The position numbers and the translations under genes are program-made. A DNA stretch of 64,000 nucleotides from Ignavibacteriales bacterium (GTDB lineage: Bacteria; Bacteroidota; Ignavibacteria; UBA10030): assembly GCA_026390585.1 (NCBI GenBank), contig JAPLFP010000365.1, positions 6,768 to 70,767 of the forward strand, written 5' to 3'. Positions 5,386 to 63,534 of this stretch are shown in pieces; positions within the stretch are counted from its first letter, which is position 1, and the number at the start of each line of letters is the position of its first letter. The notes below the pieces were generated by a model that saw nothing but the letters and a program-made list of their open reading frames with translations, was not told the origin of the DNA and did not search any database.

Positions 5386-5390
5386 GAGGA

Positions 5391-5436
5391 GTCTGCTTTG
5401 TCGCCCATCCCGCACCGCGGGATGGGCGGGGCAGGC
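5391..5436. terminator. Strong hairpin just after the PorV-like gene (terminator or mRNA-stabilising stem)
   Basis: Perfect 12-bp stem CGCCCATCCCGC (5402-5413) / GCGGGATGGGCG (5417-5428), extendable with G-U pairs to 5391-5436. There is no clear U-tract. Confidence 0.45.
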
Positions 5437-5507
5437 GAATCGAAAAGAGGGCACACCCTCACCGCGTTCTCCTTTGCGGTGCGAGCGTGAACCGAAACGG
5501 AAAGAAT

Positions 5508-5575
5508 TGGGGTAATCTCCTCTTCAGGGTCTCCCCCGATGGTCGGGGGCGGTCGCCCGAATAGCGATTACCCCA
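5508..5575. other. Long imperfect hairpin of unknown function
   Basis: TGGGGTAATC (5508-5517) pairs with GATTACCCCA (5566-5575). Inner TTC-A-GGG/CCC-GAA, apical CCCCCGA-TGG-TCGGGGG, followed by TCTTTATTT. Confidence 0.55.
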
Positions 5576-5584
5576 TCTTTATTT

Positions 5585-5756
5585 CTAGAAGCCATCTCAA
5601 AAATGCCTATTCTGTCCTACAATGACTTCAGGCAAAAGTGTCATTGCGAGCGCTGTTTGCGAAGCAATCTGTACATGCATAGATTGCTTCGTCGTCCCGA
5701 AGAGGAGAAGCGGGACTCCTCGCAATGACACTAAAGGTTTTTGAGATGAGTTCTAG
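5585..5756. mobile_element. MITE-like / REP-like nested palindromic element (172 bp)
   Basis: Terminal inverted repeats match at 17/19 nt (CTAGAAGCCATCTCAAAAA 5585-5603; TTTTTGAGATGAGTTCTAG 5738-5756), with CTAG at both ends. Inner perfect IRs are AGTGTCATTGCGAG/CTCGCAATGACACT (14 bp) and CGAAGCAATCT/AGATTGCTTCG (11 bp). Confidence 0.7.
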
Positions 5757-5836
5757 CTTGATTGAAATAGGATACGAGGGAAAATCCGATTTCGATATTG
5801 TCTAGAGTTTAGAATTTCGTGCTTTGAGTTTCTTAA

Positions 5837-5886
5837 TAGAAAATCATTCGGTTGTTGAACTGAACGAAATTCTGAAAGAGGGGTGA
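5837..5886 (+). pseudogene. Relic 3' end of a Gfo/Idh/MocA oxidoreductase gene
   Basis: Reads ENHSVVELNEILKEG*, versus ENHSVIELNDILKAE* at the end of the 27686-28702 gene. 46/52 nt are identical over 5837-5888 vs 28653-28704. Confidence 0.8.
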
Positions 5887-5990
5887 CCATGAGACCATCT
5901 CGGAGGAAGTTCCTCAACACGGCCGCCTTGACAATGGCGGGCGTTGCACTTGCCCCAAGGGAAACACTCGCGGAATATGTGCCTGATGAC
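5837..5990 (+). repeat. Copy 1 of a 154-nt dispersed direct repeat (oxidoreductase tail plus Tat leader)
   Basis: Manual ungapped alignment to 28653-28806 gives 129/154 identical nt. Confidence 0.9.
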
Positions 5991-7862
5991 GCGAGTATCT
6001 TAAAAGGTACACCAATGTCAACATTCCCGTGGTTACGAAACCTCAGTGATTTCTTCGTCGGAAGCCTTCGGAATGCAAGACATTTCGACCGGGAAGCATA
6101 CATCCGTCAACTTGCAGATCAGGGATTTACACACGTCAGCATCAACGGCCTTGGCGCTGATCGACCGTTTGAGTCCGGCCCGCCGGGGGATGTGTACTCG
6201 TGGTTCTATGATTACAGTCCGGATCTTGACCAATTCGTGACGAGTAAACTAATCGATGGCTTCTACCCTGAGGAATACCTCAGGAAGAATCTCGAATTTC
6301 TGAAATCCGGAGCAGCCCTCGCAATGAAATACGGAGTTGTGCCGGGTTTGCACGTCAATTCTCCACGATCGATGCCAGAGAAGTTCTGGGAGAAGTGTCC
6401 CTTTCTTCGCGGCGCACGCATCGACCATCCGCGGGAAAGCTTCCGACCGCGCTATACGCTTGCGATGGCTCACCCAGTCGTTCAGCAACACTATCGGGAG
6501 CTTGTTCATAACCTCATGAAGGAAGTGCCGCAACTGGGCTTCATTCACGTTTGGACGAATGACAGCGGATCGGGATTCGAGTTTGTGGCATCGCTGTACG
6601 CCGGCCGAAACGGAGGGCCATATCTGATTCGCGAGTGGAAAAGTGACGATGAGATTGCGCGCAGAGCGGCGGAAAACGTTCTGACCTACTATCACCTGCT
6701 GCGCGACCAATCAAAGAAGCTGAACCCAGCGTTTCGCGTAATTTGCGATCTCGGACCATTCTACGCAGAACGGAAGTACATCGCACCCGGTCTTGGCGAT
6801 GGCCTCGATGCAGGAGAATTTGCCTCATTCGAAAAACCGGAGAGCAGAGAAGAACGCGAAATGCTGAACCGCGTGGGCGCGGTTGTCCACCAGAAGCTCG
6901 ATCTTGGGGACAACAATGTTCTGGGGGTGCCGTGTCCAAAGCTGGTATACGAGCGCCTGCAAGGGGCGGCAAAAGCCGGTGCCACGCATGTGATGGTGGG
7001 TGTGACCCCACGCTCGCTGGCTCCCTTTGATATCAACGGAGATGTCCTCCAGGCATTTCAACAGAATTCCCAGACACCCCTGGAAGATGTAATCAACGCA
7101 AGTGCTGAACGATGGGTCGGGTCGGCGCACGCACAGAGCTTGCGAGAACTCTGGGCTCTGTCAGATACCGCTGTACGATCATATCCTTTCGGCATTCCGT
7201 ATAGCACCTTTGCATTTCCATGGTTTCGGCTGTGGATTCGACCGTTCGTGCCGAATATTGATACCATCCCGGAATCGGACCGTTTGTACTACGAGCGCTA
7301 TCTTCTCGCAACGTTCAACAATCCAGCGCGCATCGATCTGAACAACGACATGATGTGGAACTTCCTGACGGTGGAGGAGGCTGGAGAAAAGAAACGCTCC
7401 ATCGACCGATCGGTAATTCCACCCCTCAGTCAAGCCGTTGCGCGCTCGACGGAACTGCTTCAACACATCGAACACGCATCTCCAGCAGGCAAAGTGTTTC
7501 AGGATCTCCATGATCGTCTTTGCGCCGCACAGTGCTACTATCGAACAATGAGAAACACTGTCGCCTGGACAGAATCGGTTCATGGATACATGGAGGCGAA
7601 GTCGCAGACGGAGAAACAGAAATTCCGAGAACTGTGTCGAGAGATGGTTGTCAATGAACTGGACAACGCACGAAACCTTCTGAAGCTCTGGACGGAGAGC
7701 CACGTTGACTGGATGCCGGTGACGACCGGTGAAGAATCACTCCATATCTATGCGGATAACTTCGGGGATCATGTTCGACGAAAAATTGAGTTGATGAACC
7801 GGCACGCGACAGATGAACCGTACATTGATCCCAACTATATGTGGAGGATGCCGAAAGAGTAA
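5889..7862 (+). CDS. Tat-exported uncharacterised glycoside-hydrolase-like (probable TIM-barrel) protein, paralog of 61201-63534
   Basis: Tat motif SRRKFL. Shares blocks with the 61201 protein: LDQFV.S, GAR.DHP..S..PR..L..AHPV, W.NDSG.GFE...SLY.GRNGG.Y.IREWK. Confidence 0.65.
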   Translation: MRPSRRKFLNTAALTMAGVALAPRETLAEYVPDDASILKGTPMSTFPWLRNLSDFFVGSLRNARHFDREAYIRQLADQGFTHVSINGLGADRPFESGPPGDVYSWFYDYSPDLDQFVTSKLIDGFYPEEYLRKNLEFLKSGAALAMKYGVVPGLHVNSPRSMPEKFWEKCPFLRGARIDHPRESFRPRYTLAMAHPVVQQHYRELVHNLMKEVPQLGFIHVWTNDSGSGFEFVASLYAGRNGGPYLIREWKSDDEIARRAAENVLTYYHLLRDQSKKLNPAFRVICDLGPFYAERKYIAPGLGDGLDAGEFASFEKPESREEREMLNRVGAVVHQKLDLGDNNVLGVPCPKLVYERLQGAAKAGATHVMVGVTPRSLAPFDINGDVLQAFQQNSQTPLEDVINASAERWVGSAHAQSLRELWALSDTAVRSYPFGIPYSTFAFPWFRLWIRPFVPNIDTIPESDRLYYERYLLATFNNPARIDLNNDMMWNFLTVEEAGEKKRSIDRSVIPPLSQAVARSTELLQHIEHASPAGKVFQDLHDRLCAAQCYYRTMRNTVAWTESVHGYMEAKSQTEKQKFRELCREMVVNELDNARNLLKLWTESHVDWMPVTTGEESLHIYADNFGDHVRRKIELMNRHATDEPYIDPNYMWRMPKE

Positions 7863-9092: not shown

Positions 9093-10673
9093 ATGAAAGA
9101 AACCTTCATTCGCTCCGGTCACCCCCAACTCGATGCACTCTATCCCCGCATCAAGAACTTTCTCATGAGCGATGTCACCGAATATAACATGTTTGGCGCG
9201 AAAGTCCGCGGCTACCGCACACCGGACACACCGAGTCTGTGGATTCGCGATTACTCGGATATGATGCGGGGCTTCAGATATTGGGAAAGTGACATGAAGA
9301 GTCTCGTCGACCACTTTGCTGAAATGCAGTCAGCGAAAGGGTGGTTGTTTGACTATTTTACGATGACCCCGGAAAAAGTCCCCTGTGAAAAAGAAAACTG
9401 GGCGAAATATGTGAGGGTTCCAGTCGAAGCGGATGTCGAGTTTCGGTTCATCAAGGCGATCTACCTGGCGTGGCAGGCAACGGGAGACGACCGGTGGGTA
9501 AAGAAACTGCTACCGAGGATGGAAAAGGCACTCAACTATATTCTGACGGACGAGTGGAGATGGGATAAGAAAACGAAGCTCGTCAAGCGTGGCTATACCA
9601 TCGACACGTGGGACTTTGACTACACGGCCGGACGCCATTCGTGGCTCAACTTCCAGGTGAATGATGATACCTATTGGGGTATCATGCATGGAGACAACTC
9701 GGGGTACTATGAGGCGTTCAACCAGATGGCGACGTTGTATGCTCATCTCGGTCTGAGAGCTCGGGCCCGACATTGGGGTTCGTACGCGGAAGCATTTCGG
9801 ACCCGTGCGAACAAAATCTGTTTCAACGGAGCATTCTACACGCACCACGTTCATCTTGTGCCGGTTTCGATCGAAGGAGTCGATGAAGCTAAGCAACTAA
9901 GCCTCAGCAATCCGATGAATATCAACCGCGGTCTTGCAACGCATGCAATGGCCGTGAAGATTCTTCGAGAATATCAGCGGCGAGGCAAAGCAAAGGGGGC
10001 GTTTGCTGACTGGTTTAGCCTTGATCCCCCGATGCCGGATGGAATTTACGGGGATGAAAAGCTCGTTGCTGGAGCCTACTGTAACGGTGGCCTCTTGCCT
10101 CTCGTGGGCGGCGAATTGTCGCGAGCGGCGTTCGACCACGGATTCGAAGAATATGGAGTTGAGCAACTCCTGAAGTACGAACGGCTCACAAATAATAACG
10201 AAACGTACCTCTGGTATTTTCCCAACGGGAGAAAATCCACCGTTGAAACCAGCACGAGTCCTGATGCATCACCGACAGACGGTTGGGGCTCATCGGCAAT
10301 GCTCTATGCCCTGATCGAGGGGCTGGCGGGAATTGTCGATGAGGGCAAACTCTTTCAGCGCGTGCGTCTCTCTCCGCGATGGCTGGCTGCAGGAAGAAGC
10401 GAAGCATCCGTTTGTGCAGCGTATGGAGCGTCTGGAGCATCGTTTGAGTATTCCTTCGGGCACAACGTGTCTGCCAAAACTATTGAGATGAAGTTGACAG
10501 GAAAGGCCATGACGCGTCTTCACGTTCTTCTCCCCCGGGAAACGAAAGCGACAAAGGTGAGCATTGGCGCGAAGAAACTGAGTTTTCGTAACACAAAGGT
10601 CGAAGAAAGTTCTTATGTTGATGCAGATGTCGACGTGAAGAAGAACGCGGTTGTTCTCATTCGATACCAATAG
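9093..10673 (+). CDS. Six-hairpin (a/a)6 glycosidase-like protein, cytoplasmic
   Basis: LWIRD and EADVE...AIY.AWQATGD..W.K..LP.MEKALNY motifs, plus a C-terminal beta domain. No signal peptide. Confidence 0.65.
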   Translation: MKETFIRSGHPQLDALYPRIKNFLMSDVTEYNMFGAKVRGYRTPDTPSLWIRDYSDMMRGFRYWESDMKSLVDHFAEMQSAKGWLFDYFTMTPEKVPCEKENWAKYVRVPVEADVEFRFIKAIYLAWQATGDDRWVKKLLPRMEKALNYILTDEWRWDKKTKLVKRGYTIDTWDFDYTAGRHSWLNFQVNDDTYWGIMHGDNSGYYEAFNQMATLYAHLGLRARARHWGSYAEAFRTRANKICFNGAFYTHHVHLVPVSIEGVDEAKQLSLSNPMNINRGLATHAMAVKILREYQRRGKAKGAFADWFSLDPPMPDGIYGDEKLVAGAYCNGGLLPLVGGELSRAAFDHGFEEYGVEQLLKYERLTNNNETYLWYFPNGRKSTVETSTSPDASPTDGWGSSAMLYALIEGLAGIVDEGKLFQRVRLSPRWLAAGRSEASVCAAYGASGASFEYSFGHNVSAKTIEMKLTGKAMTRLHVLLPRETKATKVSIGAKKLSFRNTKVEESSYVDADVDVKKNAVVLIRYQ

Positions 10674-10683
10674 GAAATCAACA

Positions 10684-12960
10684 ATGAAACGAAGAGATTT
10701 TCTGAAAGCACCGGCTGCCGGACTCCTCCTCGCGCCGGGATTCAGTGTTGCGGATGGATCTCCCCGAGAGAACGAACCGGGCGGCCAGCCAGATGTTGTG
10801 CGGCAAGATATTCAACAGCGAATGCATCCGGATTTCATTACTTGTCTGCCCGGAGTAGAGTATTTCTTCTTCGGGAACGGCGACATCGCGGGCGTGGTGC
10901 AGCATTGCCCGAAGGATACAAGCGGAACGTTCCTCGGCTTCACCTTCATGAATCCGGGACTCTTCAGTAGAAAGTGGAGCACCTATCTCTATCATCCTGA
11001 ACGGGGATTCACCAATACGCGTCTTGGCGTCACACTTGAAGAGGACAACCCTGGATTGACCAAGGAAAGCGGGATGTATCATGGGGTAAAAGGGTATGCG
11101 GTCACGCCAGAGAACTTCGTGTCCATTCAATGGAAATACATGGATACCGTTCCAGTCGTCTCGCTTCTGTGGAAAGCTGGAGAGTGTGAGGTCGAGGAGG
11201 AATTCTTCGCTCCCAGCGAAGGATCAGTCCTCTTCAGGCGGGCAACGGTAAAGAACTCCTCCGGCAGGCCGCTTCATGTTCGTCTTGGCCTGTCCCTGTA
11301 TGCGAATTTTGGTCTCTTCGACCAAATCTACGTAGATGAGAAAGAGAAAGCGGCCTTCGCGCGCGGTCTGGCGAAGATGAAACTGTTCACACTGGAAAAA
11401 GAGGCGACGGTGGCGGGGCGCTATGACGTTCGTGTCGACGTCGGGACAATTCCACCGGGCGAGTCACGTCAGTCAACGTACGTGTACTGCTTGAACGATG
11501 GAGAGAAGATCTTTAAGAGAAAAAGCTTTGCGGTTCTTTGGAAAAATACGGTGCAGTATTGGAATGGGAAAGGAATTCTTGAAACCGGCAACAAAGAGTT
11601 TGACGATCTCTGGAAGGTATCCAAGACGAGTCTCCGGGCGGTGATGGGCAATAATGCTCGGATGGACGCCGGTGTCTGGGAATACAACATGGAGTGGGTG
11701 ATCGACCACCTGTGGGCGGCGATCGGATTTCTGAGGTCCGGATTTGTGGACGAAGCGCGCCTGCTTGTTGAAAACAATCTCAAGCACGCAATTGGTTTCG
11801 ACGGACGCACGATTGAATCCAGCCGCTGGTTTGGCTATGACTATACCGAGCTGAACCAAAATGGCAGTCTCGTTCACAGCATATGGGAATACCTTTGCTG
11901 GACGGGAGATTTCGCCCTGGTGAAGAAATACTGGGACAAAATTAAACTCTGTGCTGAGTTTCCGCTGCAGGAGGTCTTTTTCGACAAGCGGGCACACATG
12001 GTGCATAACAAAAGAGAGTTCTGGGAGCGGAGCGATTCCCATGGCATCGAGGATGGATTTGAGATGGCGTACCAGTTCTGGATCATCATGGGGCTCGAGA
12101 AGGGGGCGGAAATTGCCCAGGCACTCGATGATCGTACCACCGCCCGCAAATGGCGACAAACCGCACGTGAGATGAGAGAATCATTTCTCTCTGATCCTAC
12201 CTTCAAGATGATTGAGAACGGACGCATCATTAAGCGAAGAAAAAGGAATGGGGAATGGCAGAAGTTGAGCGTTCCTCCCAATCGGAGCGCAATGCCTCCC
12301 GGTTCGCCGCTTGCAACGGACGAGAATCCCGCATTGGATCCGGACACCGTTGTGGCGTTCCCGATCATTTTCGGATTGATCGACCCGAAAAGCGACCTCT
12401 CACTCAAGACGCTCGAGTGGGTTGATACGTTATGGGGTCAACAGTGGGAAGGAGGAGGGTATTCACGCTATAACACACACAGCGAACCCGATCCCCCTGC
12501 ACCCTGGCCATTCAACTCCGTTATGGTTGCCCGCGCACACGCCGACGCAGGCAATGACGACAAGGTTTGGCGTGTGCTGGATTGGCTCACGAACCTGCCG
12601 ACCGGAAAATCGGGTTCCTGGTTCGAACATTTGGGTCCCAGCATAACGCCGCCCGCTCCGCCGGTTGGAATTGTCGGATGGATCTGGTACGAGATCATGG
12701 CGCTGTATGTTCATCATATTGTGGGACTCAGGCCGGAGCTGGACAGATTGGTTGTTCGTCCACGACTGATCAAAGGGCTTGACAACATCCGCTCGACGCA
12801 CATCATACGAAAGAAGCAGGTGTCGATACACATCCAACGATCAGCGGACAAAAGCGTTGCCACCGTCAATGGAAAAAAGGTAGCAGTCAACAATGGGGCC
12901 ATTTCGATCCCGTATCCCACCAAGGGAATAACAACGATTGAGTTCACTATTGCAGGATAA
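10684..12960 (+). CDS. Tat-exported GH15-like (a/a)6 glycoside hydrolase
   Basis: Tat motif MKRRDFLK. GH15-like motifs YNMEWVID, ELNQNG, EFWER, GGYSRY..PWP, WFEH. Paralog of 24615-26598. Confidence 0.7.
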   Translation: MKRRDFLKAPAAGLLLAPGFSVADGSPRENEPGGQPDVVRQDIQQRMHPDFITCLPGVEYFFFGNGDIAGVVQHCPKDTSGTFLGFTFMNPGLFSRKWSTYLYHPERGFTNTRLGVTLEEDNPGLTKESGMYHGVKGYAVTPENFVSIQWKYMDTVPVVSLLWKAGECEVEEEFFAPSEGSVLFRRATVKNSSGRPLHVRLGLSLYANFGLFDQIYVDEKEKAAFARGLAKMKLFTLEKEATVAGRYDVRVDVGTIPPGESRQSTYVYCLNDGEKIFKRKSFAVLWKNTVQYWNGKGILETGNKEFDDLWKVSKTSLRAVMGNNARMDAGVWEYNMEWVIDHLWAAIGFLRSGFVDEARLLVENNLKHAIGFDGRTIESSRWFGYDYTELNQNGSLVHSIWEYLCWTGDFALVKKYWDKIKLCAEFPLQEVFFDKRAHMVHNKREFWERSDSHGIEDGFEMAYQFWIIMGLEKGAEIAQALDDRTTARKWRQTAREMRESFLSDPTFKMIENGRIIKRRKRNGEWQKLSVPPNRSAMPPGSPLATDENPALDPDTVVAFPIIFGLIDPKSDLSLKTLEWVDTLWGQQWEGGGYSRYNTHSEPDPPAPWPFNSVMVARAHADAGNDDKVWRVLDWLTNLPTGKSGSWFEHLGPSITPPAPPVGIVGWIWYEIMALYVHHIVGLRPELDRLVVRPRLIKGLDNIRSTHIIRKKQVSIHIQRSADKSVATVNGKKVAVNNGAISIPYPTKGITTIEFTIAG

Positions 12961-12963
12961 CCG

Positions 12964-14238
12964 ATGAGAAGAAGCGATTTCTTCAAGACAGCGTTTGGCG
13001 CTGCCGCCGTCGCGGGCCTTTCGGGGTTTAGGTGGAAGGGCGATAAAGCAATTCGCCCGACGGAAGCCTGGCCGGCAATCGATCCAGAGGACGAGCAGTT
13101 CTGGAGATTTGTACGGACGCAATTTCCGCTCACCGATGAGCGCGCCTACCTGAACACTGGCGGACTTGGCGCGTCTCCCTACGCCGTCATTGACGCGGTG
13201 AAAGCGAAGATGGACGAGTTGGAAAAAATCGCAGAAACTGGCCATTCAGATGAGCTCTGGAAAGAGGTCAAGACTGCCGCTGCGCAGCTGCTTGGATGTG
13301 ATGCAACGGAGTTGGCGTTCACCCGAAACGCCACCGAGGGTATCAATATCGTTTGTAATGGGTTGCCGCTCAAACGCGGCGATGAGATGATCACAACAAC
13401 GCATGAGCATGTCGGAAATACGGTTCCATGGTTGGGGTTGCTGAAGCGGGAAGGGATTGTCGTTAAGCTGTTTGAGCCGTCGACGGTGTCGGCACAGGAA
13501 AATGTGGATCGGATTGAACAGTTACTCACGAAAAAAACCCGCCTCATCAGTGTTCCCCATGCAACGACAACGACGGGGCAGATTCTCCCGATCAAAGTCC
13601 TCTCTGCGCTCGCGAAGCCAAAGGGAATCTGGTTGTTCGTTGACGGGGCCCAGACGGCAGGAATGTTCCCGTTCAATCTTCATGAACTCGGATGTGATGC
13701 CTACGCGACGAGTGGACACAAGTGGATGCTTGGACCAAAAGAAACTGGCCTGCTGTATGTTCGCAAGGAGATGCTGGATGTCATTCAGCCCAAAATTGTC
13801 GGTGCATACTCGGCCGCCGAGTTTGACCTGGCGAAAGGAACGCTGGATTTTGTTCCGAGTGCACAACGCTATGAGTACGGGACAGTGAGCATTCCGCTTC
13901 GGTTTGGTCTTGGCGCTGCAATAAGCTTCCTGCAGAAGATTGGAATGGAGAATATCTGGAAGCGGGATCAGTCACTCTCCACGAGATTGTTTATGGGCCT
14001 GAAGTCGATTCCATACGTGAGCGTCCTTTCTCCAGAAAGCAGTACGGAGAGAAGCGCGCTTGTGACGTTCAAGCACGAAAAGATCCCATTTGGCGATCTC
14101 CAGCGTCATCTTGACACATACAAGCTCCGAACGCGTGGTGTTGGCGAAGGCGGAGTGAACGCTCTTCGAATCTCGACGCATCTCTATAATAGTCACGATG
14201 AGGTTGACCGCGCGTTAGAAGCAGTGAAGACTGCCTAG
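12964..14238 (+). CDS. Tat-exported class V PLP-dependent enzyme (aminotransferase V fold)
   Basis: Leader MRRSDFFK. YLNTGGLG, FTRNATEG, DGAQTAG, SGHKW (PLP Lys), RYEYGT, LRISTHLYN. No catalytic Cys loop. Confidence 0.85.
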   Translation: MRRSDFFKTAFGAAAVAGLSGFRWKGDKAIRPTEAWPAIDPEDEQFWRFVRTQFPLTDERAYLNTGGLGASPYAVIDAVKAKMDELEKIAETGHSDELWKEVKTAAAQLLGCDATELAFTRNATEGINIVCNGLPLKRGDEMITTTHEHVGNTVPWLGLLKREGIVVKLFEPSTVSAQENVDRIEQLLTKKTRLISVPHATTTTGQILPIKVLSALAKPKGIWLFVDGAQTAGMFPFNLHELGCDAYATSGHKWMLGPKETGLLYVRKEMLDVIQPKIVGAYSAAEFDLAKGTLDFVPSAQRYEYGTVSIPLRFGLGAAISFLQKIGMENIWKRDQSLSTRLFMGLKSIPYVSVLSPESSTERSALVTFKHEKIPFGDLQRHLDTYKLRTRGVGEGGVNALRISTHLYNSHDEVDRALEAVKTA

Positions 14239-23790: not shown

Positions 23791-24618
23791 ATGCATCGTC
23801 TTGAATTTGGTATGGTGAGCGATGAAGTCTCGCCCGATTTCAATGAAGCTGCGCGATACTGCGCCGAGTGGGGCATCTCGATCTTCGAGCTGCGTGTTCT
23901 CAAAACCGGACGCATCCCAGCGGTTGAGCTGAGTGAACTGCGGGAAGTCCAGGCGATAGTGAAGAACAATGGGCTGAGGGTCACGGCGTTGTCGCCCGGA
24001 ATCTTCAAGTTGCCCCTATCGCAGACAGCGAAACTCGAAGAGGAACTTACAACCACGTTGCCCAAGACACTCGCTTTGGCACGCGAGTTTGGAGCATCAC
24101 TTGTCATAGTGTTCGGGTTTCAAAGAGAACAGAACGAAAAGCCTGAGATGTTCTCGCGGGCAGTGGATTTCATGTGTCGTGCCGCTGAGAAAGCGGGGAA
24201 GGAAGGAATAAGAATCATCATCGAAAATGAGCCTGGCTTCTGGTGTGATTCTGGCGTCAACACAGCGAAATTGATTCAGAAAGTGGACTCTCCGTACCTG
24301 AGAGCCAATTGGGATCCGTGCAACGGCTACGGCACGGCGGAGCGCCCCTTTCCGGAAGGGTATGAAGCGGTCAAGCAATACATTGCCAACGTGCACGTGA
24401 AAGACACAAAAGAAGGATCGTTGATTCGCTGCGTTCCCGTCGGTGAAGGTGCGGTGGACTGGAAGGGACAGCTCGCGGCTTTAGTGCGGGATCAACTGGT
24501 ACGACACGTAACAATCGAAACGCACTGCCTGCCGTTGGTGGAGAAATCGAAACAGAACGTGGAGACACTGAAAAACTATCTCGCTGAAATCTATCGCCAA
24601 CAGGAGACTGTAGTATGA
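23791..24618 (+). CDS. Sugar phosphate isomerase/epimerase (AP_endonuc_2, xylose-isomerase-like TIM barrel)
   Basis: IENE, WDPCN, HVKD, VPVGEGAVDW, TIETH metal-binding motifs. Confidence 0.85.
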   Translation: MHRLEFGMVSDEVSPDFNEAARYCAEWGISIFELRVLKTGRIPAVELSELREVQAIVKNNGLRVTALSPGIFKLPLSQTAKLEEELTTTLPKTLALAREFGASLVIVFGFQREQNEKPEMFSRAVDFMCRAAEKAGKEGIRIIIENEPGFWCDSGVNTAKLIQKVDSPYLRANWDPCNGYGTAERPFPEGYEAVKQYIANVHVKDTKEGSLIRCVPVGEGAVDWKGQLAALVRDQLVRHVTIETHCLPLVEKSKQNVETLKNYLAEIYRQQETVV

Positions 24619-26598
24619 GCCTTGAACGACGAGACTTCTTGAAATATGTCGGCGTAGGAGCCATTGCGACAACCATCCGTCCTCACCTCGATTCCCCGCA
24701 GGATGCCCCTCTTGTGAACGAACAGAATATCCATCCGGATTTTCGTTCGAACAACCCAGGGTTAGAATATTACATACTTGGTAACGGCCTGATCCTCACG
24801 GCCCTTCAGGTTTCGCCGAAGCCCGAGTCCGGCACGCATTGTGGACTGCTCGTAAGTTCCTCGGAACACTTTTGTCGAAAACTCAGCACGTACCTTTTTC
24901 ATCCCGAGCGTGGACTTCAGAACACGCGATTCACTGTCAATATCGATGGAAAAGGATACAGTCCGGAGTATGACAAGACCAGCATCCGGTGGGAATATCC
25001 CGACAACGTACCGACTATTGTCGTAGAGTGGACTGCGGGGGAATGCGCTATTCGAGAAGAACTGTTGTGTCCCATCAATGACTCTGCTCTCGTTCGGACA
25101 GTGACGGTACAAAACAAGTCATCCGTTGCCGTGAAAGTGACCGGCACAATCCTTCTTTATCCTAACCTCATGTTCTTCGACGAATATCATGTCGATCGTG
25201 AGAGAGGAACCCTGGCAGCAACAGGATATGCTGCGATGGAGTTGTTCTGCCTCAACGAAGCGACGCCGGGTGACAGGCACTTGAATGTTCTGTTCGGAGA
25301 AATCCCCGCCGGAGGCAAGAAAACCTCAACTGTCGTTCTGACAGTCAACCATCCGCGGGCGAAATTCGAAAAGAAGGGTCTGCCCGCGATGCTGAAGGAA
25401 AGCCAAAAGTACTGGAGCCAGCGTGCAACGTGTGAGACGAACCACGGCGGACTCAATCACCTTTTCCACAGTGCGGTGGCAGGGATCCGCTCGGCCGTGG
25501 CACATTCAGGGAAGATGGACGCGGGAATCTGGCAGTACAATTTCGAATGGGTGCGCGACCAGAGCATGATGGCGGCCGCAAGTTCTGTGTGCGGGCATTC
25601 CGACATCGCCGAGGCATCGCTGCTTCGAATGCTCGATCGTTCCATCGATGATGAGGGGCGGGCCCGGGACGCAAGCCGCCACAGGCCGCCGGAGACAATT
25701 GAGCTCGATCAAAACGGGGAATTTCTCTATGCAGTCTGGACGCACTGGGTGTGGACCGGCAACGATGCAATCATCAAACGGTATTGGCCGAAGATCAAAG
25801 CTGCTGCAAATTTTGTACTCCGACCTGAGTTTCTGAATCCTGCAACCGGGCTCGTAAAAAACTCCCGTGAATTCTGGGAGCGCGATACGGGGTTTGGGGT
25901 CAAAGAAGGATATGAGCACACCTATCAGGTATGGAACATCGTCGGCCTCGAACTTGCGGCGGATCTGGCGCATCATATGAAGGAACCAGCCAGTGCGCAA
26001 AAATGGGTGGAGGCTTCGAGGAAGATGAAGAACTCCTTTCTCAATCGCAATCAAAACACTCGAGTCGATGGAATTGTTGTGGAATCAACGATGGACAACA
26101 GGTGGATATGCCCGCTACAACGTGACATCGGAGCCTGATTCACCGGGATCGTGGCCATTTGCGACGATGTTCCTGGCCCGAGCATACTTCGAAGCGGGCA
26201 ATGACGAAAAGGTCTGGCGCGCGCTCAATTGGCTCTTGAACTGCCCCGGAGGCAAGGCTGGAGCGTGGTTCGAATGTCACGCTGACAGGCCTGTGCCGCC
26301 GTTGCCGCCACTGGGGATTGTGCCGTGGACATGGGCAGAATTGGCCGTTTTCTTTGTTCATCACCTCCTCGGCGTGCGCCCGAACAAGAACGAACTTGTG
26401 ATTCGGCCGAGGCTATTAAGTGGGCTCGACAAAGCAAGAGCATCATTGACTCTTCGCGGTCAGCGAATCGACCTGACTGTTACCCGCGCTGAGAAGGAAG
26501 CGCTGGCTATGGTGAACGGAAAACGGGTCCCACTGGTGAACGGTGAACTCAAGCTGGCGATTCCGGCGAAGGGGCAAACCATCGAAATGAAAATCTAG
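24615..26598 (+). pseudogene. Tat-exported GH15-like hydrolase disrupted by a frameshifting internal deletion at about 26046
   Basis: Leader ERRDFLK; YNFEWVRD, ELDQNG, EFWER. After SFLN the homology to the 10684 paralog resumes in another frame at AIKTLESM (26047), skipping about 69 residues. Confidence 0.85.
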
Positions 26599-26618: not shown

Positions 26619-27689
26619 ATGGCAATACTGTTTGGTAAGAACTATAGCCGCGGTGAATTGGAGCGACACATTGGTCACCTTTCGCAGATTGCAGGCGTGA
26701 GGTTGATGGAGTTGCAGGATGGACAGGAATCCTGTGTCCGCATCGCGGATGTCCGGAGTGGATCGGGATTGCGATTTCAGATTTCGCTCAATCGTGGAAT
26801 GGACATTTCTCTTGCTGAATACAAAGGGATGTCGCTGGCATGGCGCTCCCCGCAGGGGGATGTCCACCCAAGTTACTTTGATCCCAAAGGAATGGGGTGG
26901 TTGAAATCGTTCCCTGGAGGATTGATGACCGGATGCGGGTTGACGACTGCAGGGGCTCCCAGCATAGATGCCGGAGAAGAATTGGGGATCCACGGCCGCT
27001 TGTCGAATCTCCCGGCCTCCAACACTAAGGCAGAAACAGAATGGGCTGGAGATCGATGCGTGTTCAAGGTCAGTGGTGTCATCAGAGAAAATGTCATCTT
27101 CAAAGAGAACCTGGCCCTCTACAGGACAATCGAAGTTGAGCTCGGGAAATCAACTATTACTCTGCGTGATAAGGTTGTGAATGAAGGATTCCGCCGATCG
27201 CCACTGATGATGCTTTATCACATCAATTTAGGATGGCCGCTGCTTGATGAAGGATCTGATGTGCACTTGAATGCGCGATCAATGAAGCCAAGAGATGACG
27301 AGGCTGACAAAGGCGCCGCTTCAGCGATGAGGATACCGGCTCCAATTTCCGGGTACAAGGAACAGGTCTTCTACCATGACTTGATCGCAGACAGCGGCGG
27401 ATTCGCTTCGGCGGTACTCGCAAACAGGAAGCTCGGGCTGGGTCTGTTTGCCCGCTACAGGCAGAAGGAGCTGTTGAGGTTCATTCAGTGGAAAATGGTG
27501 GCGGAAGGAGAGTATGTCCTCGGGTTCGAGCCTGCGAATTGCCTGGTTGAGGGACGAGCCAAAGAACGCGGGCGAGAAACGCTGCAGTTTCTTGAGCCCG
27601 GAGAAACGCGTGAGTTTCTCGTTCACATCGGCGTTCTTGATGGCAACGCTGCGATTGATCAATTCGAAAGTGAGAACAACCTATCATGA
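26619..27689 (+). CDS. Aldose 1-epimerase-like protein (DUF4432-type)
   Basis: RGMDISLA.YKG..LAW, GL.TGCGL...G.P, HGRLSN, YHINLG.PLL, VLGFEP. Confidence 0.8.
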   Translation: MAILFGKNYSRGELERHIGHLSQIAGVRLMELQDGQESCVRIADVRSGSGLRFQISLNRGMDISLAEYKGMSLAWRSPQGDVHPSYFDPKGMGWLKSFPGGLMTGCGLTTAGAPSIDAGEELGIHGRLSNLPASNTKAETEWAGDRCVFKVSGVIRENVIFKENLALYRTIEVELGKSTITLRDKVVNEGFRRSPLMMLYHINLGWPLLDEGSDVHLNARSMKPRDDEADKGAASAMRIPAPISGYKEQVFYHDLIADSGGFASAVLANRKLGLGLFARYRQKELLRFIQWKMVAEGEYVLGFEPANCLVEGRAKERGRETLQFLEPGETREFLVHIGVLDGNAAIDQFESENNLS

Positions 27690-28702
27690 CAGAAAAGAAA
27701 GTGCGAATTGCACAAGCCGGCATTGCAAATCATGGCCGGACGATTGTGAACGCAACGCGTGATTCCGGAAATCTTCAGCTCGTCTCGTGCTTTGACATCA
27801 ACACGGCAGCGAACGAGCAAGTGGCGAAGGAGTTCGGAGCGACGGCGGCCGCGGGGTATGATCAACTCGTCAACGACCCGAACGTCGACGCAGTTTCGCT
27901 GGTGACCCCTAATCATCTTCACCTTTATCAAATCCAAAAAGCCGTCGAAGCGAAGAAGCATATCTTCGTGGATAAGCCGATCACGAACACCGTTAGAGAG
28001 GCGCGTGAGGCCATCGGGATGGCAGAACAAGCAGGCCTGATTCTGATGGTGGGCCACAACACTCGAAGACGCCAGGTGTTCCGTCGCGCGAAAGCGCTTC
28101 TGGCCGAGCAACGAATCGGCGAAATCGTGGCGGTTGAGGCAAATCTCTCCCGTCCTGCCGGCTTGCAGGCGGGACTCCCGGCGTGGAAAGCAGATCGGCG
28201 CACATGCGCCCTCCTGCCGATGATGCAGCTTGGAATCCATTTCGTCGATACCGTGGAATACCTGATCGGCCCCATCGAACGTATAAGCTGTTTTGCCGGC
28301 AACATCGCAATGCCCAACCGGGTCCTTGACTCGACAGCGGCAATTCTCCAGCTGAAATCGGGCATTCCCGTCTCCCTCACATCGTACTACGTCTCCGCTG
28401 ATGCGTATTTTCTCCGCATCTATGGTACACAAGGGACAATTCATTGCTTTCCACTGAAACTTCGTCTGGACCTTCTGCAGAATGGAGAACCGAAAGAGAC
28501 GATCGAGGAAGATTTCAGTTCAGAAGGAGCGGGTAGCTATATCCTGCAGATGCGGGAATTCGGGGACTGCGTTTTACGAGGAGTACAGCCAGAAACAGGA
28601 GGCGGCCAGGGCCTGAGAGCATTGGCGGTCATTGAGGCGATGGTGAAGTCTGTAGAGAATCATTCGGTTATTGAACTAAACGACATTCTGAAAGCGGAGT
28701 GA
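27686..28702 (+). CDS. Gfo/Idh/MocA-family oxidoreductase
   Basis: DAV.LVTPNHLH, HIFVDKP, VGHNTRR, GIHFVD. Confidence 0.9.
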   Translation: MTEKKVRIAQAGIANHGRTIVNATRDSGNLQLVSCFDINTAANEQVAKEFGATAAAGYDQLVNDPNVDAVSLVTPNHLHLYQIQKAVEAKKHIFVDKPITNTVREAREAIGMAEQAGLILMVGHNTRRRQVFRRAKALLAEQRIGEIVAVEANLSRPAGLQAGLPAWKADRRTCALLPMMQLGIHFVDTVEYLIGPIERISCFAGNIAMPNRVLDSTAAILQLKSGIPVSLTSYYVSADAYFLRIYGTQGTIHCFPLKLRLDLLQNGEPKETIEEDFSSEGAGSYILQMREFGDCVLRGVQPETGGGQGLRALAVIEAMVKSVENHSVIELNDILKAE

Positions 28703-28806
28703 CCATGAGACCATCTCGAAGGAAATTTCTCAATACGGCTGCGCTGACAATGGCGGGCGTTGCACTTGCCCCACGAAAGACATTTGCGGCGTACGTTCCA
28801 GACGAC
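28653..28806 (+). repeat. Copy 2 of the 154-nt repeat (oxidoreductase tail plus Tat leader)
   Basis: 129/154 identical to 5837-5990 by manual alignment. Confidence 0.9.
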
Positions 28807-30729
28807 CCAATACAGAAGAAATCACATACACTCCTCTTCGATCAGAGCGACCTCGCGCGCATACAAGCGACACAAAGGCTTCCGCGTTTTGCCTCGTACT
28901 GGAAAACGATGACTGAGGCAGATCTAGCAGCTGACACAAAGTTCCTCCGCACCGAGCTGAGACTGAACAATCACGTTGCTGATTTGCTCAGGGCACGGCA
29001 GATCCTTGAGAGGTCTTCATTTGTCCATGCGATCAGTGGCGACAAGAATCATCTTGAAATCTCAAAGCTTGCCATTGACCGCATCCTGGAATACAAGAAG
29101 TGGGATTACTTTTTGGAAGGGGGAGAATATACGTTTGGTCTTCAACGCGCTCCGGAGACGACCATTGCCATGTGCTTTGCGCTGGAGTGGCTTGGCGATG
29201 CGTTGAGCGACGGTACGAAAAAGGAGATCGAGAAGCAGATCGGAGAAAAGGGAGCACCGGCGTGTTATCGCTCACTGTACGGAATGAAATATCCGGACCG
29301 CGTTCGAGGATGGGGATTTGACCCAGAGAGCGACTATGCGTTTAAGGTCGTCGATATGAGCCGTTGGCCGTTGATCCTGAACTCGACAAATCTCAAGGTC
29401 ATACCCATCGCCGGACTTGGCGTTGCCGCTTGTCTGCTGTACAACAAGCATCCGCAAGCGGAACAATGGCTCAACCTTGCGCGACAGAGCGCCCGAGCCT
29501 TTGCGCCGATGTTCGGTTCTGACGGCTGCTATGACGAAGGGGTCAGCTATTGGGGATACACAGCGCTCTATTATACGCTGTTCCTGGAGGTGATGTATCG
29601 CACCCTGGGAATTGATGAGCGAAACCTCATCAACTACCCTGGGACCGTGCGCTATGGACTTCAAATGTCGATGCCAACCGAAGGCAAGCCGGATGACTGT
29701 GTAAATTTCGGTGATGCGAGCACAGTGGGCGATGTCTCGGTCGCCGCTTGGGTGGCTCGACGGCACCGCGATCCAATAGCTCAATATGTTGCGACGTCAA
29801 TCAGTGAAGTAAAGACCCATTACGGAATGGTGTGGTACGATCCGACGGTGGAGGCGAAGAAACCTGGCCCAGAGTTGTACGATGTGCGTTTCGACAACGA
29901 TGTAGTTGTGTCTAGAACGGGATGGGACGAAAAGGACTCGGTGGTTGGTCTGCGCAGTGGGGGGCCAGCCAACCACGAGCATGCAGATCGGAACAGCATA
30001 GTTTTCAAGGCGTATGGTGAGCGATTGCTTCACGATCCTTTGCACGCCGCCTATCTGTATACGCTTCCGCACTGGATATTGCGACTGACGGCGGCACACA
30101 CATCTGTCCTGATTAATGGCAAAGGTCATCAATATCATGATGGTCATGAAGGGACCAACGCTTCGTGGGCGGAGGCAAAAGTTGTTCGTTATCAGCCGTC
30201 GGAGAAACAGCTCCTTGTCACGAGCGACGCAACGGAAGCATATCGATTGGTGAATCCTGACGTCAAGTCGGTGAGGCGCACATTGGTTTTCCTGAAACCT
30301 GACATCCTACTTGTTTTCGATAGGGTGACGCTGAAGTCAGTGAAGTCAAAAGTCCAGCTCCGCTTTCAGGTCTACAACGGCGACGGAAAGGGAGGGTCGG
30401 ATTTGAAAAAGGATGGATTTCTGATCAAGCGCCCATTGGCTTCTCTCCATGGAACGATTGTGACTCCAGCACCGGTTGAGGTCAAATCAGGTGAACATGC
30501 TGTACCGAAGGATATCGGTGTCTATCCGTTCGTTGAAGTGGAAGCAGGCGAGTCTCTTGATCACCATATCCTGAGCGTGTTTACAGCACAGCAAGCTGGC
30601 AAGGAGCATGGAAAAGTGACCTCGACATCCAAAGGTTCTCTGTGGACTGCGAGAATTGAGCACAACGGCCAGTCAAAGAACGTGAGCATCAACGTTGACG
30701 AAGATGTTCCGACGATCAGCATCACATAG
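28705..30729 (+). CDS. Tat-exported heparinase II/III-like polysaccharide lyase
   Basis: Tat motif SRRKFL. DG.Y.EGVSYWGY, VNFGD, HEHADRNS..F.AYGE.L..D, AHTSVLING. Confidence 0.8.
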   Translation: MRPSRRKFLNTAALTMAGVALAPRKTFAAYVPDDPIQKKSHTLLFDQSDLARIQATQRLPRFASYWKTMTEADLAADTKFLRTELRLNNHVADLLRARQILERSSFVHAISGDKNHLEISKLAIDRILEYKKWDYFLEGGEYTFGLQRAPETTIAMCFALEWLGDALSDGTKKEIEKQIGEKGAPACYRSLYGMKYPDRVRGWGFDPESDYAFKVVDMSRWPLILNSTNLKVIPIAGLGVAACLLYNKHPQAEQWLNLARQSARAFAPMFGSDGCYDEGVSYWGYTALYYTLFLEVMYRTLGIDERNLINYPGTVRYGLQMSMPTEGKPDDCVNFGDASTVGDVSVAAWVARRHRDPIAQYVATSISEVKTHYGMVWYDPTVEAKKPGPELYDVRFDNDVVVSRTGWDEKDSVVGLRSGGPANHEHADRNSIVFKAYGERLLHDPLHAAYLYTLPHWILRLTAAHTSVLINGKGHQYHDGHEGTNASWAEAKVVRYQPSEKQLLVTSDATEAYRLVNPDVKSVRRTLVFLKPDILLVFDRVTLKSVKSKVQLRFQVYNGDGKGGSDLKKDGFLIKRPLASLHGTIVTPAPVEVKSGEHAVPKDIGVYPFVEVEAGESLDHHILSVFTAQQAGKEHGKVTSTSKGSLWTARIEHNGQSKNVSINVDEDVPTISIT

Positions 30730-61200: not shown

Positions 61201-63534
61201 ATGCCAACGATTCTTGATCATCTGACGCAAACAAAGGCCATCCACACCACCTCCTCGTCCGTCAAGGTGGAGCAAACCGTCGCTCATGAACTGAAGATCC
61301 TGATCGGAGGCCGGGTGGAGATCAAACAAGCTCCTGGATTAAATGCACCCGCCGGCACAGTGCGACTTGGTGTAGTCCAGGAAAAGTCCAGGTGGCGATC
61401 AATCCATCCCTCTCTGGATGGAACCCAGGATTGGATGATAGCGAGAGTGAAAAACGGAGGGGGAGTAGAGCTCCTGTCCTCTCGCCCGCATCTCCTCTAC
61501 TATCTGTTCGCGCAATTGACCGAGAATTGGAAGGGAGAAGATGTCCTGCAATTTGCGGACGGCAGGATTCTTCATCCATCGTTCCGTAATCTTCGTCCGG
61601 TCTATGATCTTTTCCTTACGCAACATGCGCGCACGGTGCGTAATTTCGATCGCGAAGAACACGTCCGAAATCTTGCCCGTATGGGATTCTCGCATGCAGA
61701 AGTCAATGGGTTGGCATTCGCTGTTCCGTTTGAGCGTGGTCCCCAGGGAGAACTGCTTCACCGATTTTATACGTACTGCCCCTCTCTCGATCAATTCGTC
61801 TCCAGCCGTCTGAACAAAGGCACCTATGACGACGACTATTTGCAGGCAAATCTAAATCTTCTGAAAACAAATGCCGCCCTTGCAGAGAGATATGGCCTCG
61901 AGCCCGGAATGGTATGCTTTGAGCCGCGGTCCGTGCCCGATAACCTGCTCCAGAAGTATCCGATGCTCCGCGGCGCGCGGGTTGATCATCCGATTCGAAG
62001 CTGGCATCCGCGATTCAATCTCTCGATTGCACATCCGGTCGTACGGGAGCACTATGCGGAAATGATGGAGAAGATTCTCCGGGAGGTACCAAGCCTCGGT
62101 TACATCTCTGTTTGGTCAAATGACAGCGGTGCCGGATTTGAGTACACAAGTTCGTTATATGTGGGGCGCAACGGCGGTGGCTACGTCATCCGCGAATGGA
62201 AAGGCGATACCGAAATTGCCGAATCGGCTGCCAACAACCTGATGCGATTCCAACGACTCCTTCGGGACGCTGGCCGAAAGGTCAATCCGAAATTCCGCAG
62301 CCTGATTCGTTTGGAACCCTTCTGGGCAGAACACGAGTACATTTGGAAGCAGCTCGGCGACGGACTCGATGTTGAAGTCTCATCATTGTTGACCAAGGGG
62401 TGGGGACTGGCGTACAAACACCCCAAATACAAAGAAGCTCGTGAAATTCATGGGACGGCGCTTCATAACAAGTTTGTCGATGCGGAGAAGCCGGTGATCG
62501 AAGAGCTTCGGCAGAAGAAATCAGATGCCGATGTGTACTTCAACCCCGGCATCATCTGGAACCATGAGCCACTCATTGGAATTCCATTCCCGCATCTTGT
62601 ATGCGACAAGTTGACGGATATGCACAAACAGGGGGTTACAACGCCCTGCTACAATGGAAGCGCGACGCCTCCATCGTTCGCACCGTACAATATTAACCAG
62701 GAAGTGGTGCGAGCGTATCAGGGCGATAGCGCTCTGGACCTCGAGGCCTTCCTGCAGAAAAAGGCAGGAGAATGGATTGGCGAACACCTTGCTGCAGACC
62801 TGGTGAAAGTCTGGAACCACTCGGATGAGGCATACCGGTCATTTCCCATTCCCATCTGGATCTATTCGTCCTGGGGAAACTGGTACAGGCTTTCGACGCG
62901 ACCCATCATTCCGAATGTCGAGGCTATTTCGGAAGCGGACCGCGAATACTATGAACAGTTCCTGCTGGCAACATCCCACAACAGGTGTCGTGTGGACTTT
63001 AGGTATGATGTAGGATTCGACCTTGTTGACCCGGCTCACGCACTGCACTGTGTGCAACTGATCGATCGGGATCTTTTCCCGCATATGGAAGCAGCATTGA
63101 AACTGCTTCGTCACATGAAAGACCGCGCCACGACAGATGCAGCACACGCTTGCATTACAGACGTGACAGACAGAATGCGAGGATTGTACTGCTGGTACCG
63201 AACGCAACGCAACGTGGCGGCCTGGGTGGCAGGAGTGCACGGCTATCTTGAATCGAAAGAGAAGAAGGTCAGAAAAGAATGCCGCAAGCTTCTGAAAGAC
63301 ATGGTGCTGGATGAAATTGAAAACACGAAACGATTGCTCGAACTCTGGGAAACCTCCAAAACCAACTGGATGATTCTTTCCGCGGTCGGGGAGACGACAT
63401 TCATTTACTATGACAACTTTGGCGAGCAGTTGAAGCGAAAGATCGCACTGATGAAGGGGCATGAGAACGATGAACCATATGTGGATCCGAACTTCCAGTG
63501 GCGTGTACCAGGATTCACTGATGTGAAACGATAG
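61201..63534 (+). CDS. Uncharacterised cytoplasmic GH-like protein with an extra N-terminal domain, paralog of 5889-7862
   Basis: AAGGAG RBS, no signal peptide. Shared blocks begin at about residue 125 and run to the C-terminal EPY.DPN..WR.P. Confidence 0.65.
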   Translation: MPTILDHLTQTKAIHTTSSSVKVEQTVAHELKILIGGRVEIKQAPGLNAPAGTVRLGVVQEKSRWRSIHPSLDGTQDWMIARVKNGGGVELLSSRPHLLYYLFAQLTENWKGEDVLQFADGRILHPSFRNLRPVYDLFLTQHARTVRNFDREEHVRNLARMGFSHAEVNGLAFAVPFERGPQGELLHRFYTYCPSLDQFVSSRLNKGTYDDDYLQANLNLLKTNAALAERYGLEPGMVCFEPRSVPDNLLQKYPMLRGARVDHPIRSWHPRFNLSIAHPVVREHYAEMMEKILREVPSLGYISVWSNDSGAGFEYTSSLYVGRNGGGYVIREWKGDTEIAESAANNLMRFQRLLRDAGRKVNPKFRSLIRLEPFWAEHEYIWKQLGDGLDVEVSSLLTKGWGLAYKHPKYKEAREIHGTALHNKFVDAEKPVIEELRQKKSDADVYFNPGIIWNHEPLIGIPFPHLVCDKLTDMHKQGVTTPCYNGSATPPSFAPYNINQEVVRAYQGDSALDLEAFLQKKAGEWIGEHLAADLVKVWNHSDEAYRSFPIPIWIYSSWGNWYRLSTRPIIPNVEAISEADREYYEQFLLATSHNRCRVDFRYDVGFDLVDPAHALHCVQLIDRDLFPHMEAALKLLRHMKDRATTDAAHACITDVTDRMRGLYCWYRTQRNVAAWVAGVHGYLESKEKKVRKECRKLLKDMVLDEIENTKRLLELWETSKTNWMILSAVGETTFIYYDNFGEQLKRKIALMKGHENDEPYVDPNFQWRVPGFTDVKR

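Follow-up and report, generated by a model that had tools for sequence, protein, structure and literature searches.

A GH-like enzyme gene in an Ignavibacteriales genome has very probably acquired its Tat leader by capture: a cassette of ~156 nt was copied from the boundary between a Gfo/Idh/MocA oxidoreductase gene and a heparinase-like gene onto a leaderless gene, would now direct Tat export of the enzyme, was kept by selection and has been lost or swapped in some lineages. Throughout, the window is the whole stretch of DNA that was analysed, 64,000 nt in length.

The evidence begins with a direct repeat. Positions 5837-5990 of the window match 28653-28806 at 129 of 154 nt in an ungapped pairwise alignment, the longest direct repeat returned for the window by a repeat finder. 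In 30-nt windows the identity is 23-29 within the match and drops to a background of 6-11 on both sides, and a search of the whole genome (4.7 Mb, 379 contigs) found these two copies of the 154-nt segment only. On the donor side the 52 nt 5' of the ATG comprise the final 15 codons of the oxidoreductase gene at 27686-28702 with its stop and 2 further nt, and the remaining 102 nt are 34 leader codons, with 31 of the 34 residues identical. Codons 1-23 of the captured and donor copies differ by exactly seven substitutions, all seven synonymous, residue 24 is identical too (AGG/CGA) and the similarity between the proteins stops after YVPDD. At the recipient site the gene tail is an orphan relic, its frame closed by an in-frame TAG at 5803-5805. 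The ungapped match, the orphan tail, the 23 identical residues with seven synonymous changes and the break after YVPDD had all been claimed in the original prediction and were all reproduced, the recount agreeing exactly and the break being confirmed by protein alignment. The features of the two loci and of a paralog of the recipient are as follows.

5826-5836, + strand: left copy of the duplicated target motif (GAGTTTCTTAA), present as a single copy (..TTTCTTAAGAGGT..) at the empty sites L004, L005 and L006; in this genome (G000), L034, L030 and L027 the motif stands on both sides of the insert.
5837-5888, + strand: non-coding relic of the 3' end of a Gfo/Idh/MocA gene (its final 15 codons and stop), with the donor Shine-Dalgarno (SD) site AAAGAGGGG at 5875-5883; 46 of 52 nt identical to 28653-28704.
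5889-5972, + strand: captured Tat signal peptide of 28 codons, MRPSRRKFLNTAALTMAGVALAPRETLA, without indels in eight lineages.
5973-5992, + strand: first 6-7 mature codons of the heparinase-like protein (EYVPDD.); homology to 28789-28806 stops here, and P0120/L034 retains YVPDDP.
5993-6003, + strand: right copy of the duplicated target motif (GAGTATCTTAA), 10 of 11 nt identical to 5826-5836, running on into native sequence common to the leaderless orthologs.
6002-6017, + strand: native SD site (AAAAGGT), still present, and the original start position, which has become codon 43 in frame (ATG, 6015-6017).
5889-7862, + strand: recipient gene, a leader-fused GH-like enzyme of 657 aa modelled as a TIM barrel with a C-terminal helical bundle (AF2, pLDDT 79, pTM 0.83).
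27686-28702, + strand: Gfo/Idh/MocA oxidoreductase gene (PF01408, PF22725, PF02894), the 3' tail of which was co-copied.
28653-28806, + strand: donor segment, comprising gene tail, SD site, leader and six mature codons (pairwise alignment, repeat finder and genome search).
28705-30729, + strand: donor gene, a Tat-leader heparinase-II/III-like lyase of 674 aa (PF07940, Hepar_II_III_C, 40.4 bits against a cut-off of 24).
61201-63534, + strand: leaderless paralog of the recipient with an extra N-terminal domain of ~120 aa; 41% identity over 652 columns, residue 45 of the query corresponding to residue 127 of the subject.

Comparison of 81 Tat-like N-termini revealed no further captures in the genome, this being the sole pair with a common leader on unrelated bodies, and the other 'shared start' matches among the 64 two-copy short repeats of the genome were conserved paralog blocks only. 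Judged from these surveys, leader captures of the 5889/28705 type appear to be rare in this genome.

The direction of transfer was read from orthologs in 40 relatives, which are Ignavibacteriales by the names on homologous proteins. The heparinase-like orthologs align from residue 1-4 in 18 of the 18 relatives that have one, and most of those for which flanking DNA was read carry a Tat-type leader directly behind a conserved Gfo/Idh/MocA tail. Alignments to the GH-like orthologs of 18 genomes begin only at residue 31-45, the exception being a low-identity match from residue 14 in G039. Ten leaderless DNA sequences (L004-L011, L032 and L033), mostly from the same genus, with one from another genus of the family and with L032 and L033 being metagenome contigs, have a purine-rich SD-like motif (e.g. 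AGAGGT, TGAGGT) followed by 6-7 nt and then ATT at the position of 6015-6017. In L008 and L010 there is an in-frame stop 3-4 codons upstream of the ATT, which is the only codon able to start translation ahead of the conserved WLRN block, so that the native GH-like gene is leaderless and most likely initiated at ATT. Gene callers mis-start the leaderless orthologs in several ways (MWLRN, LRNLS, upstream extensions). The comparison indicates that the heparinase-like gene is the leader's native place and that the GH-like gene received a copy of it, in agreement with the earlier claim that a leader had moved onto a different catalytic body. GH-like orthologs do not routinely carry the leader behind an intact oxidoreductase; most are without it and lie behind a Meth_synt_2-like gene.

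It is highly improbable that the leader was ancestral to the GH-like family and has been lost many times, or that it passed from the GH-like gene to the heparinase-like one. Such a history would be helped by the excess of signal-peptide losses over gains in Enterobacterales (PMC5952966) and by the interleaving of leaderless and leader-bearing sequences within a 14-member clade of the GH-like family, but the 52 nt before the leader are oxidoreductase coding sequence at the donor and non-coding at the GH-like gene, 33 orthologs outside that clade have no leader and the deeper relatives have the N-domain instead. The captured leaders, moreover, are nearest to one heparinase sub-lineage (17-28 differences) and far from the rest (31-49). 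The two genes show discordant similarities among relatives: the closest GH-like ortholog is that of G003 (88%), where the heparinase-like gene is distant (65-78%), and the closest heparinase-like gene is that of G006 (93%), where the GH-like gene is more distant (80%), which suggests recombination within the cluster among congeners.

The junctions of the insert can be read at both ends. It is ~156 nt long, in frame and immediately 5' of the native SD site of the GH-like gene, and a target motif of 9-11 bp, single-copy at empty sites, is duplicated around it as direct repeats. The empty sites (L004, L005, L006, L032, L033) read ...GTGCTTCGAATTTCTTAAGAGGT-N6-ATT, and the filled sites (this window, L034, L030, L027) read ...GAGTTTCTTA[A], then relic, leader and 6-7 mature codons, then GA(G/C/A)T(A/T)TCTTAAGAGGT-N6-(ATG/GTG/ATT). 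Homology at the junctions (TCT(G)TA and CGA) is slight or lacking. The relic of the Gfo/Idh/MocA tail is also present in L034, L030 and L027, being 2 nt longer in L027. A longer Gfo remnant that had seemed to be present at the left boundary in L030 and L027 (GGTCA/GATGG) disappeared in an ungapped alignment, which gave the same boundary within 2 nt. No convincing terminal inverted repeats were found when the ends of the insert were read directly from the sequence. With these lacking and with only two genomic copies the insert does not qualify as a transposable element or MITE, and is not regarded as mobile, though a target duplication is present. The donor and recipient genes are 22.8 kb apart here and 23.6 kb apart on one contig in G006, whose GH-like gene is of the empty type. 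A 13-nt inverted match (12/13) between native upstream sequence at 5808-5820 (TTTAGAATTTCGT) and the relic at 5864-5876 (ACGAAATTCTGAA) could be chance, or microhomology relevant to template switching. A sigma-70 scan upstream of the recipient gene gave nothing useful.

The neighbourhood upstream of the insert has features of its own. A MITE-like dispersed repeat of ~175 nt at 5582-5756, with 19-nt terminal inverted repeats (5585-5603 / 5738-5756) and nested palindromes (GTCATTGCGAG...CTCGCAATGAC), lies ~80 nt upstream of the leader insert and has at least 12 partial or full copies in the genome; it is absent from L027, L030 and L034 and is therefore unrelated to the capture. In all other lineages the GH-like gene lies behind the Meth_synt_2-like gene (~344 aa), no copy of which was detected anywhere in this genome by a search run without a positive control. 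Here what precedes the GH-like gene, at 5386-5800, is a TonB-dependent receptor / secreted protein / PorV-like block, and only ~50-60 nt of the native intergenic region survive; the region upstream has been rearranged next to the MITE. The native intergenic region of L004, L005, L027, L030 and L032 (150-290 nt) contains degenerate short repeats, e.g. AAATCCGAAAT / TTCGGATTTAGGATTT / AATTCTAAA, which may be regulator sites or a simple satellite.

The insertion is, by comparison with metagenome sequences, not private to this genome; it is old and common to at least seven sequenced lineages, with later loss or replacement in others. Leader-bearing metagenome proteins that are 80-87% identical to the 5889 product include P0004, P0005, P0010 and P0120, and also P0003 and P0009, for which the gene calls are truncated. 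Contigs L027, L030 (with a GTG start) and L034, from three different samples, agree with this genome in relic, reading frame and right boundary, and in left boundary to within 2 nt. Identical junctions in independent contigs point to one old ancestral event and exclude an assembly chimera, bearing out the earlier opinion that a fresh chimera was unlikely. There is practically no probability that misassembly across the repeat, or misbinning, joined the leader to the GH-like gene: the genome is indeed a fragmented MAG, but with 25 differences in 154 bases the two copies would not be collapsed by an assembler, the junctions recur in the three other samples and the same leader is found on four further proteins known from protein sequence. 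In L034 the leader-bearing gene (L034:3001-4974) is called as two ORFs of 450 and 170 aa; either the gene is a pseudogene with a frameshift or the assembly is wrong there.

Selection on the leader was assessed between the captured copies of this genome, L027 and L030. Over codons 1-23 (n and h regions) dN/dS was 0.09-0.15 (Fisher p = 1e-4, 1e-4 and 1e-2), in tests that rest on 23-28 codons; it was 0.10-0.11 for the mature domain and 0.35-1.2, i.e. near neutral, for the linker codons 29-44, which are old mature codons and old 5'UTR. The dS of the leader (0.4-1.4) matches that of the mature domain (0.6-1.1), which implies that the leader has travelled and diverged together with the gene. The distance from the start to WLRN is 47 codons in seven heparinase-type leader sequences (P0003 being counted from the GTG in L030 DNA, and the N-truncated P0009 being merely consistent with it), and the non-coding relic has a 2-nt indel. 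When the seven synonymous differences between the captured and donor leaders were polarised with G006, three fell on the recipient side and four on the donor side. As they are split between the copies they carry little information on their own, and the between-lineage dN/dS of ~0.1 is the stronger evidence. The original prediction of selection on the leaders is thus upheld for the captured leader by comparison across lineages, but the synonymous-only changes are not proof of it by themselves. A further caveat is that the captured copy of this genome differs from donor copies at 17-19 of 102 positions and from the captured copies of L027 and L030 at 22-26 of 102, so that part of the low dN/dS could be due to gene conversion from the donor. 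Captured and donor copies are identical over at most 29 nt in a row, which was not significant by a rough estimate from 84% identity.

The captured leader has the character of a Tat signal. Both copies have the motif S4-R-R-K-F-L9 in the n-region, and the twin arginines are retained in the captured heparinase-type leaders, five of them read from called proteins and that of P0003 from L030 DNA, the call for P0009 being N-truncated. The captured and donor leaders score 18.8 and 18.7 bits with TIGR01409 against a cut-off of 16.7, and the two copies reach 14.4 and 14.9 bits with Pfam PF10518 (TAT_signal) against a cut-off of 22.7. The captured h-region is uncharged (NTAALTMAGVALAP) and is followed by R-E-T-L-A|E, a predicted cleavage site with T at -3 and A at -1; the donor has T-F-A|A. 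The c-region TLA is unlike the textbook AxA. The genome encodes a Tat translocase, with TatC at 209.6 bits and two TatA/B/E-family proteins at 74.6 and 40 bits, and on these features the 5889 product is predicted to be exported to the periplasm by the Tat route. The gene cluster is unusually rich in predicted Tat substrates: three more of its genes (10651-12960, 12964-14238 and 24615-26138) have twin-arginine-type N-termini, encoding two GH15-like / six-hairpin proteins and one class-V PLP enzyme.

Codon 43, the native start position, is ATG in five of the leader-bearing lineages, GTG in one and ATT in two, and the native SD-like motif is retained in all. Some or all of the protein could therefore still start there, and a cytoplasmic isoform is possible. 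At the extreme the captured leader would be a passenger, with translation from the native SD site and codon 43, a cytoplasmic enzyme and an upstream ORF that is fortuitous or kept similar by gene conversion. The universal retention of this second start would fit, as would the closeness of this genome's captured copy to donor copies rather than to other captured copies, and five close relatives live without the leader. This explanation is nevertheless unlikely, since dN/dS between captured leaders is ~0.1, since the twin arginines, h-region, start codon (ATG/GTG) and upstream SD site are retained in seven lineages and since the 47 codons are free of frameshifts, whereas the adjacent relic has its 2-nt indel and more substitutions. 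More speculatively, and rather doubtfully, one gene may serve two localisations, the captured SD site and first ATG giving a Tat-exported periplasmic enzyme and the native SD site and codon 43 giving the ancestral cytoplasmic one. The cassette would then be a 'localisation switch' open to gain, loss and swapping, with direct repeats that permit clean excision, and templated copies of 'gene tail + Shine-Dalgarno site + leader' would perhaps be a general route to signal peptides.

The nature of the recipient enzyme rests largely on its predicted fold. Neither the single sequence nor a profile of 35 sequences gave a Pfam, NCBIfam or PDB sequence match for the GH-like protein, and by sequence the 5889 product could not be placed in a described CAZy family. 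The AlphaFold model has the (beta/alpha)8 barrel and helical bundle seen in GH138, GH20, GH84 and GH89, and a Foldseek search with it gave GH138 BT0997 as the best match (E = 1.7e-12, TM ~0.5), then GH20, GH84, GH89 and GH115, at sequence identities of 9-12%. The fold, which resembles those of GH138, GH20 and GH89, suggests an exo-glycosidase, and the invariant residues N224-D225-S226-G227..E231 and D179-H180 are candidate catalytic residues. Of the original assignments of the two bodies, the heparinase-like lyase is supported by PF07940 and the 'GH-like' body holds at the level of the fold only, with no sequence-family match; the description of the paralog at 61201 as lacking a signal and having an extra N-domain of ~120 aa was correct, the alignment starting at residues 45 and 127.

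The presence of the leader is labile within the GH-like family. A maximum-likelihood tree built from 53 mature domains places all eight leader-bearing sequences in the one 14-member clade (support 97/94), together with five leaderless members; the 33 sequences outside it are all without a leader. At least four state changes are required on the well-supported branches. The flanking direct repeats would permit clean excision, and this makes losses (or allele exchange) plausible, though indistinguishable from primary absence. A different Tat leader, MRRSDFFKTALGAVAVAGLSGF, is carried by P0007 (L028/L029), which is sister to a leader-bearing subclade (99/96), and its counterpart lies in the window.

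12951-13029, + strand: second leader cassette, comprising the 13-nt tail and stop of gene 10651-12960 and 22 leader codons of the class-V PLP enzyme gene 12964-14238; 70 of 79 nt identical to L029:1646-1724, including TGCA(G/T)GATAACCG before the ATG.

As the L029 leader comes with its donor's upstream gene tail and matches 12951-13029, a segment of the type 'gene tail + initiation region + leader' has been captured a second time at the same place, and on the sequence evidence it probably replaced the first leader. A DDE transposase gene (IS4/IS5-type, L028:953-2386) lies ~1.5 kb upstream of the GH-like gene with the second leader. The N-terminus of P0015 (MIHRRAFIRSS... / MIHRRAFIRSSLILWLLKLFTVSSFGFSYKG) was considered as a third leader and rejected, its distal part aligning with the in-frame non-coding upstream region of leaderless genes; known from a protein call only, it is probably a gene-caller extension, the alternative being a leader arisen de novo.

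The landing of a different second cassette at the same place in L029 might be taken to mean that the site is a hot spot at which each lineage acquired the heparinase leader separately, and the captured copy of this genome is relatively close to its own donor. Independent captures of this kind are very unlikely: four lineages have the same left boundary (within 2 nt), right boundary, frame and target duplication, and the dS of the leader equals that of the mature domain.

On the account preferred here, a single ancestral capture, which is probable, an ancestor copied ~156 nt from the boundary of the Gfo/Idh/MocA and heparinase-II/III-like genes, consisting of 52-54 nt of gene tail with its SD site, a 28-codon Tat signal and 6-7 mature codons. 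The segment landed ~23 kb away in the same cluster, in frame and just upstream of the SD site and ATT of the leaderless GH-like gene, with duplication of 9-11 bp of target. Insertion may have occurred by templated short-patch duplication, either through template switching in replication or through fill-in/repair at a staggered break. The recipient gene thereby gained a strong SD site and an ATG that opens a canonical twin-arginine signal (SRRKFL, hydrophobic core, TLA|E), and a 14-residue linker is formed by the former mature codons and former 5'UTR. The already-folding enzyme would be exported to the periplasm by TatABC and cleaved by signal peptidase I. Purifying selection has kept the leader in at least seven lineages; in at least three close relatives it was removed (or never fixed), and in one lineage it was swapped for a second cassette of like build from another gene of the cluster. 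Sequence comparison shows the duplication, with its direction, junctions and age, and the selection on the peptide, whereas the way in which the segment was inserted and the export are inferred.

Templated insertions are known to arise by FoSTeS/MMBIR-type template switching, or by fill-in at staggered breaks. The 5889 insert resembles such insertions in being a short, direct-orientation copy of a distant segment of the same replicon, with little or no junction homology and a short target duplication. Target duplications of 9-11 bp are also typical of DDE transposases, but convincing terminal inverted repeats are lacking from the insert, and in this genome no transposase lies next to it. Engineered fusions, in which the TorA signal is placed on folded cytoplasmic reporters, have established that the Tat signal is a portable module sufficient for the export of a protein folded in the cytoplasm. 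The 5889 gene differs from these in being a natural fusion, kept for a long time by selection (dS ~0.4-1.4), with a linker made from old mature codons and 5'UTR. As in the eukaryotic shuffling of exons or domains for transit and signal peptides, a targeting module has moved between unrelated catalytic bodies; in contrast to it there are no introns, and what moved with the module was a bacterial translation-initiation region together with part of the gene upstream. Shared upstream regions are also known for the leaders of some Gram-positive surface-protein genes.

The closest parallel is the survey of Honigschmid et al. 2018 (PMC5952966), which found 34 cases in Enterobacterales where a Sec signal peptide had been gained by insertion as a whole. 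As in those gains, whole leaders are present or absent among orthologs of the 5889 gene, the mature parts are highly similar and gains and losses are interleaved on the tree. That study found no transposable elements near the inserted leaders, did not identify the source of the segments, removed Tat groups from its survey and considered that a random N-terminal extension is unlikely to give a working leader (PMC5952966). At the 5889 locus, by contrast, the leader is of the Tat type, and the donor can be read along with the two junctions, the gene tail copied with the leader and the duplicated target. A 2026 review of the Tat system says only that enzymes 'acquired' Tat signals (PMC13673990). 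No description of a donor-traceable Tat-leader capture was found in the literature searched, which is no proof of novelty. The locus is a new and unusually well-documented instance of a known event, the gain of a signal peptide, and not a new system.

Surveys of whole-leader differences had left open where ready-made leaders come from, and the 5889 locus provides an example in which donor, recipient, junctions, a gene-tail 'fingerprint', the target duplication, empty and filled alleles, purifying selection and a second capture can all be read. It also supplies a search image for more cases, namely short repeats that span a gene boundary and a leader. Because the Tat system carries folded proteins, a single insertion of 156 nt can suffice to bring a cytoplasmic enzyme from a glycan-utilisation cluster into the periplasm; the locus is thus a natural model for one-step relocalisation, in which an export signal is gained in one step.
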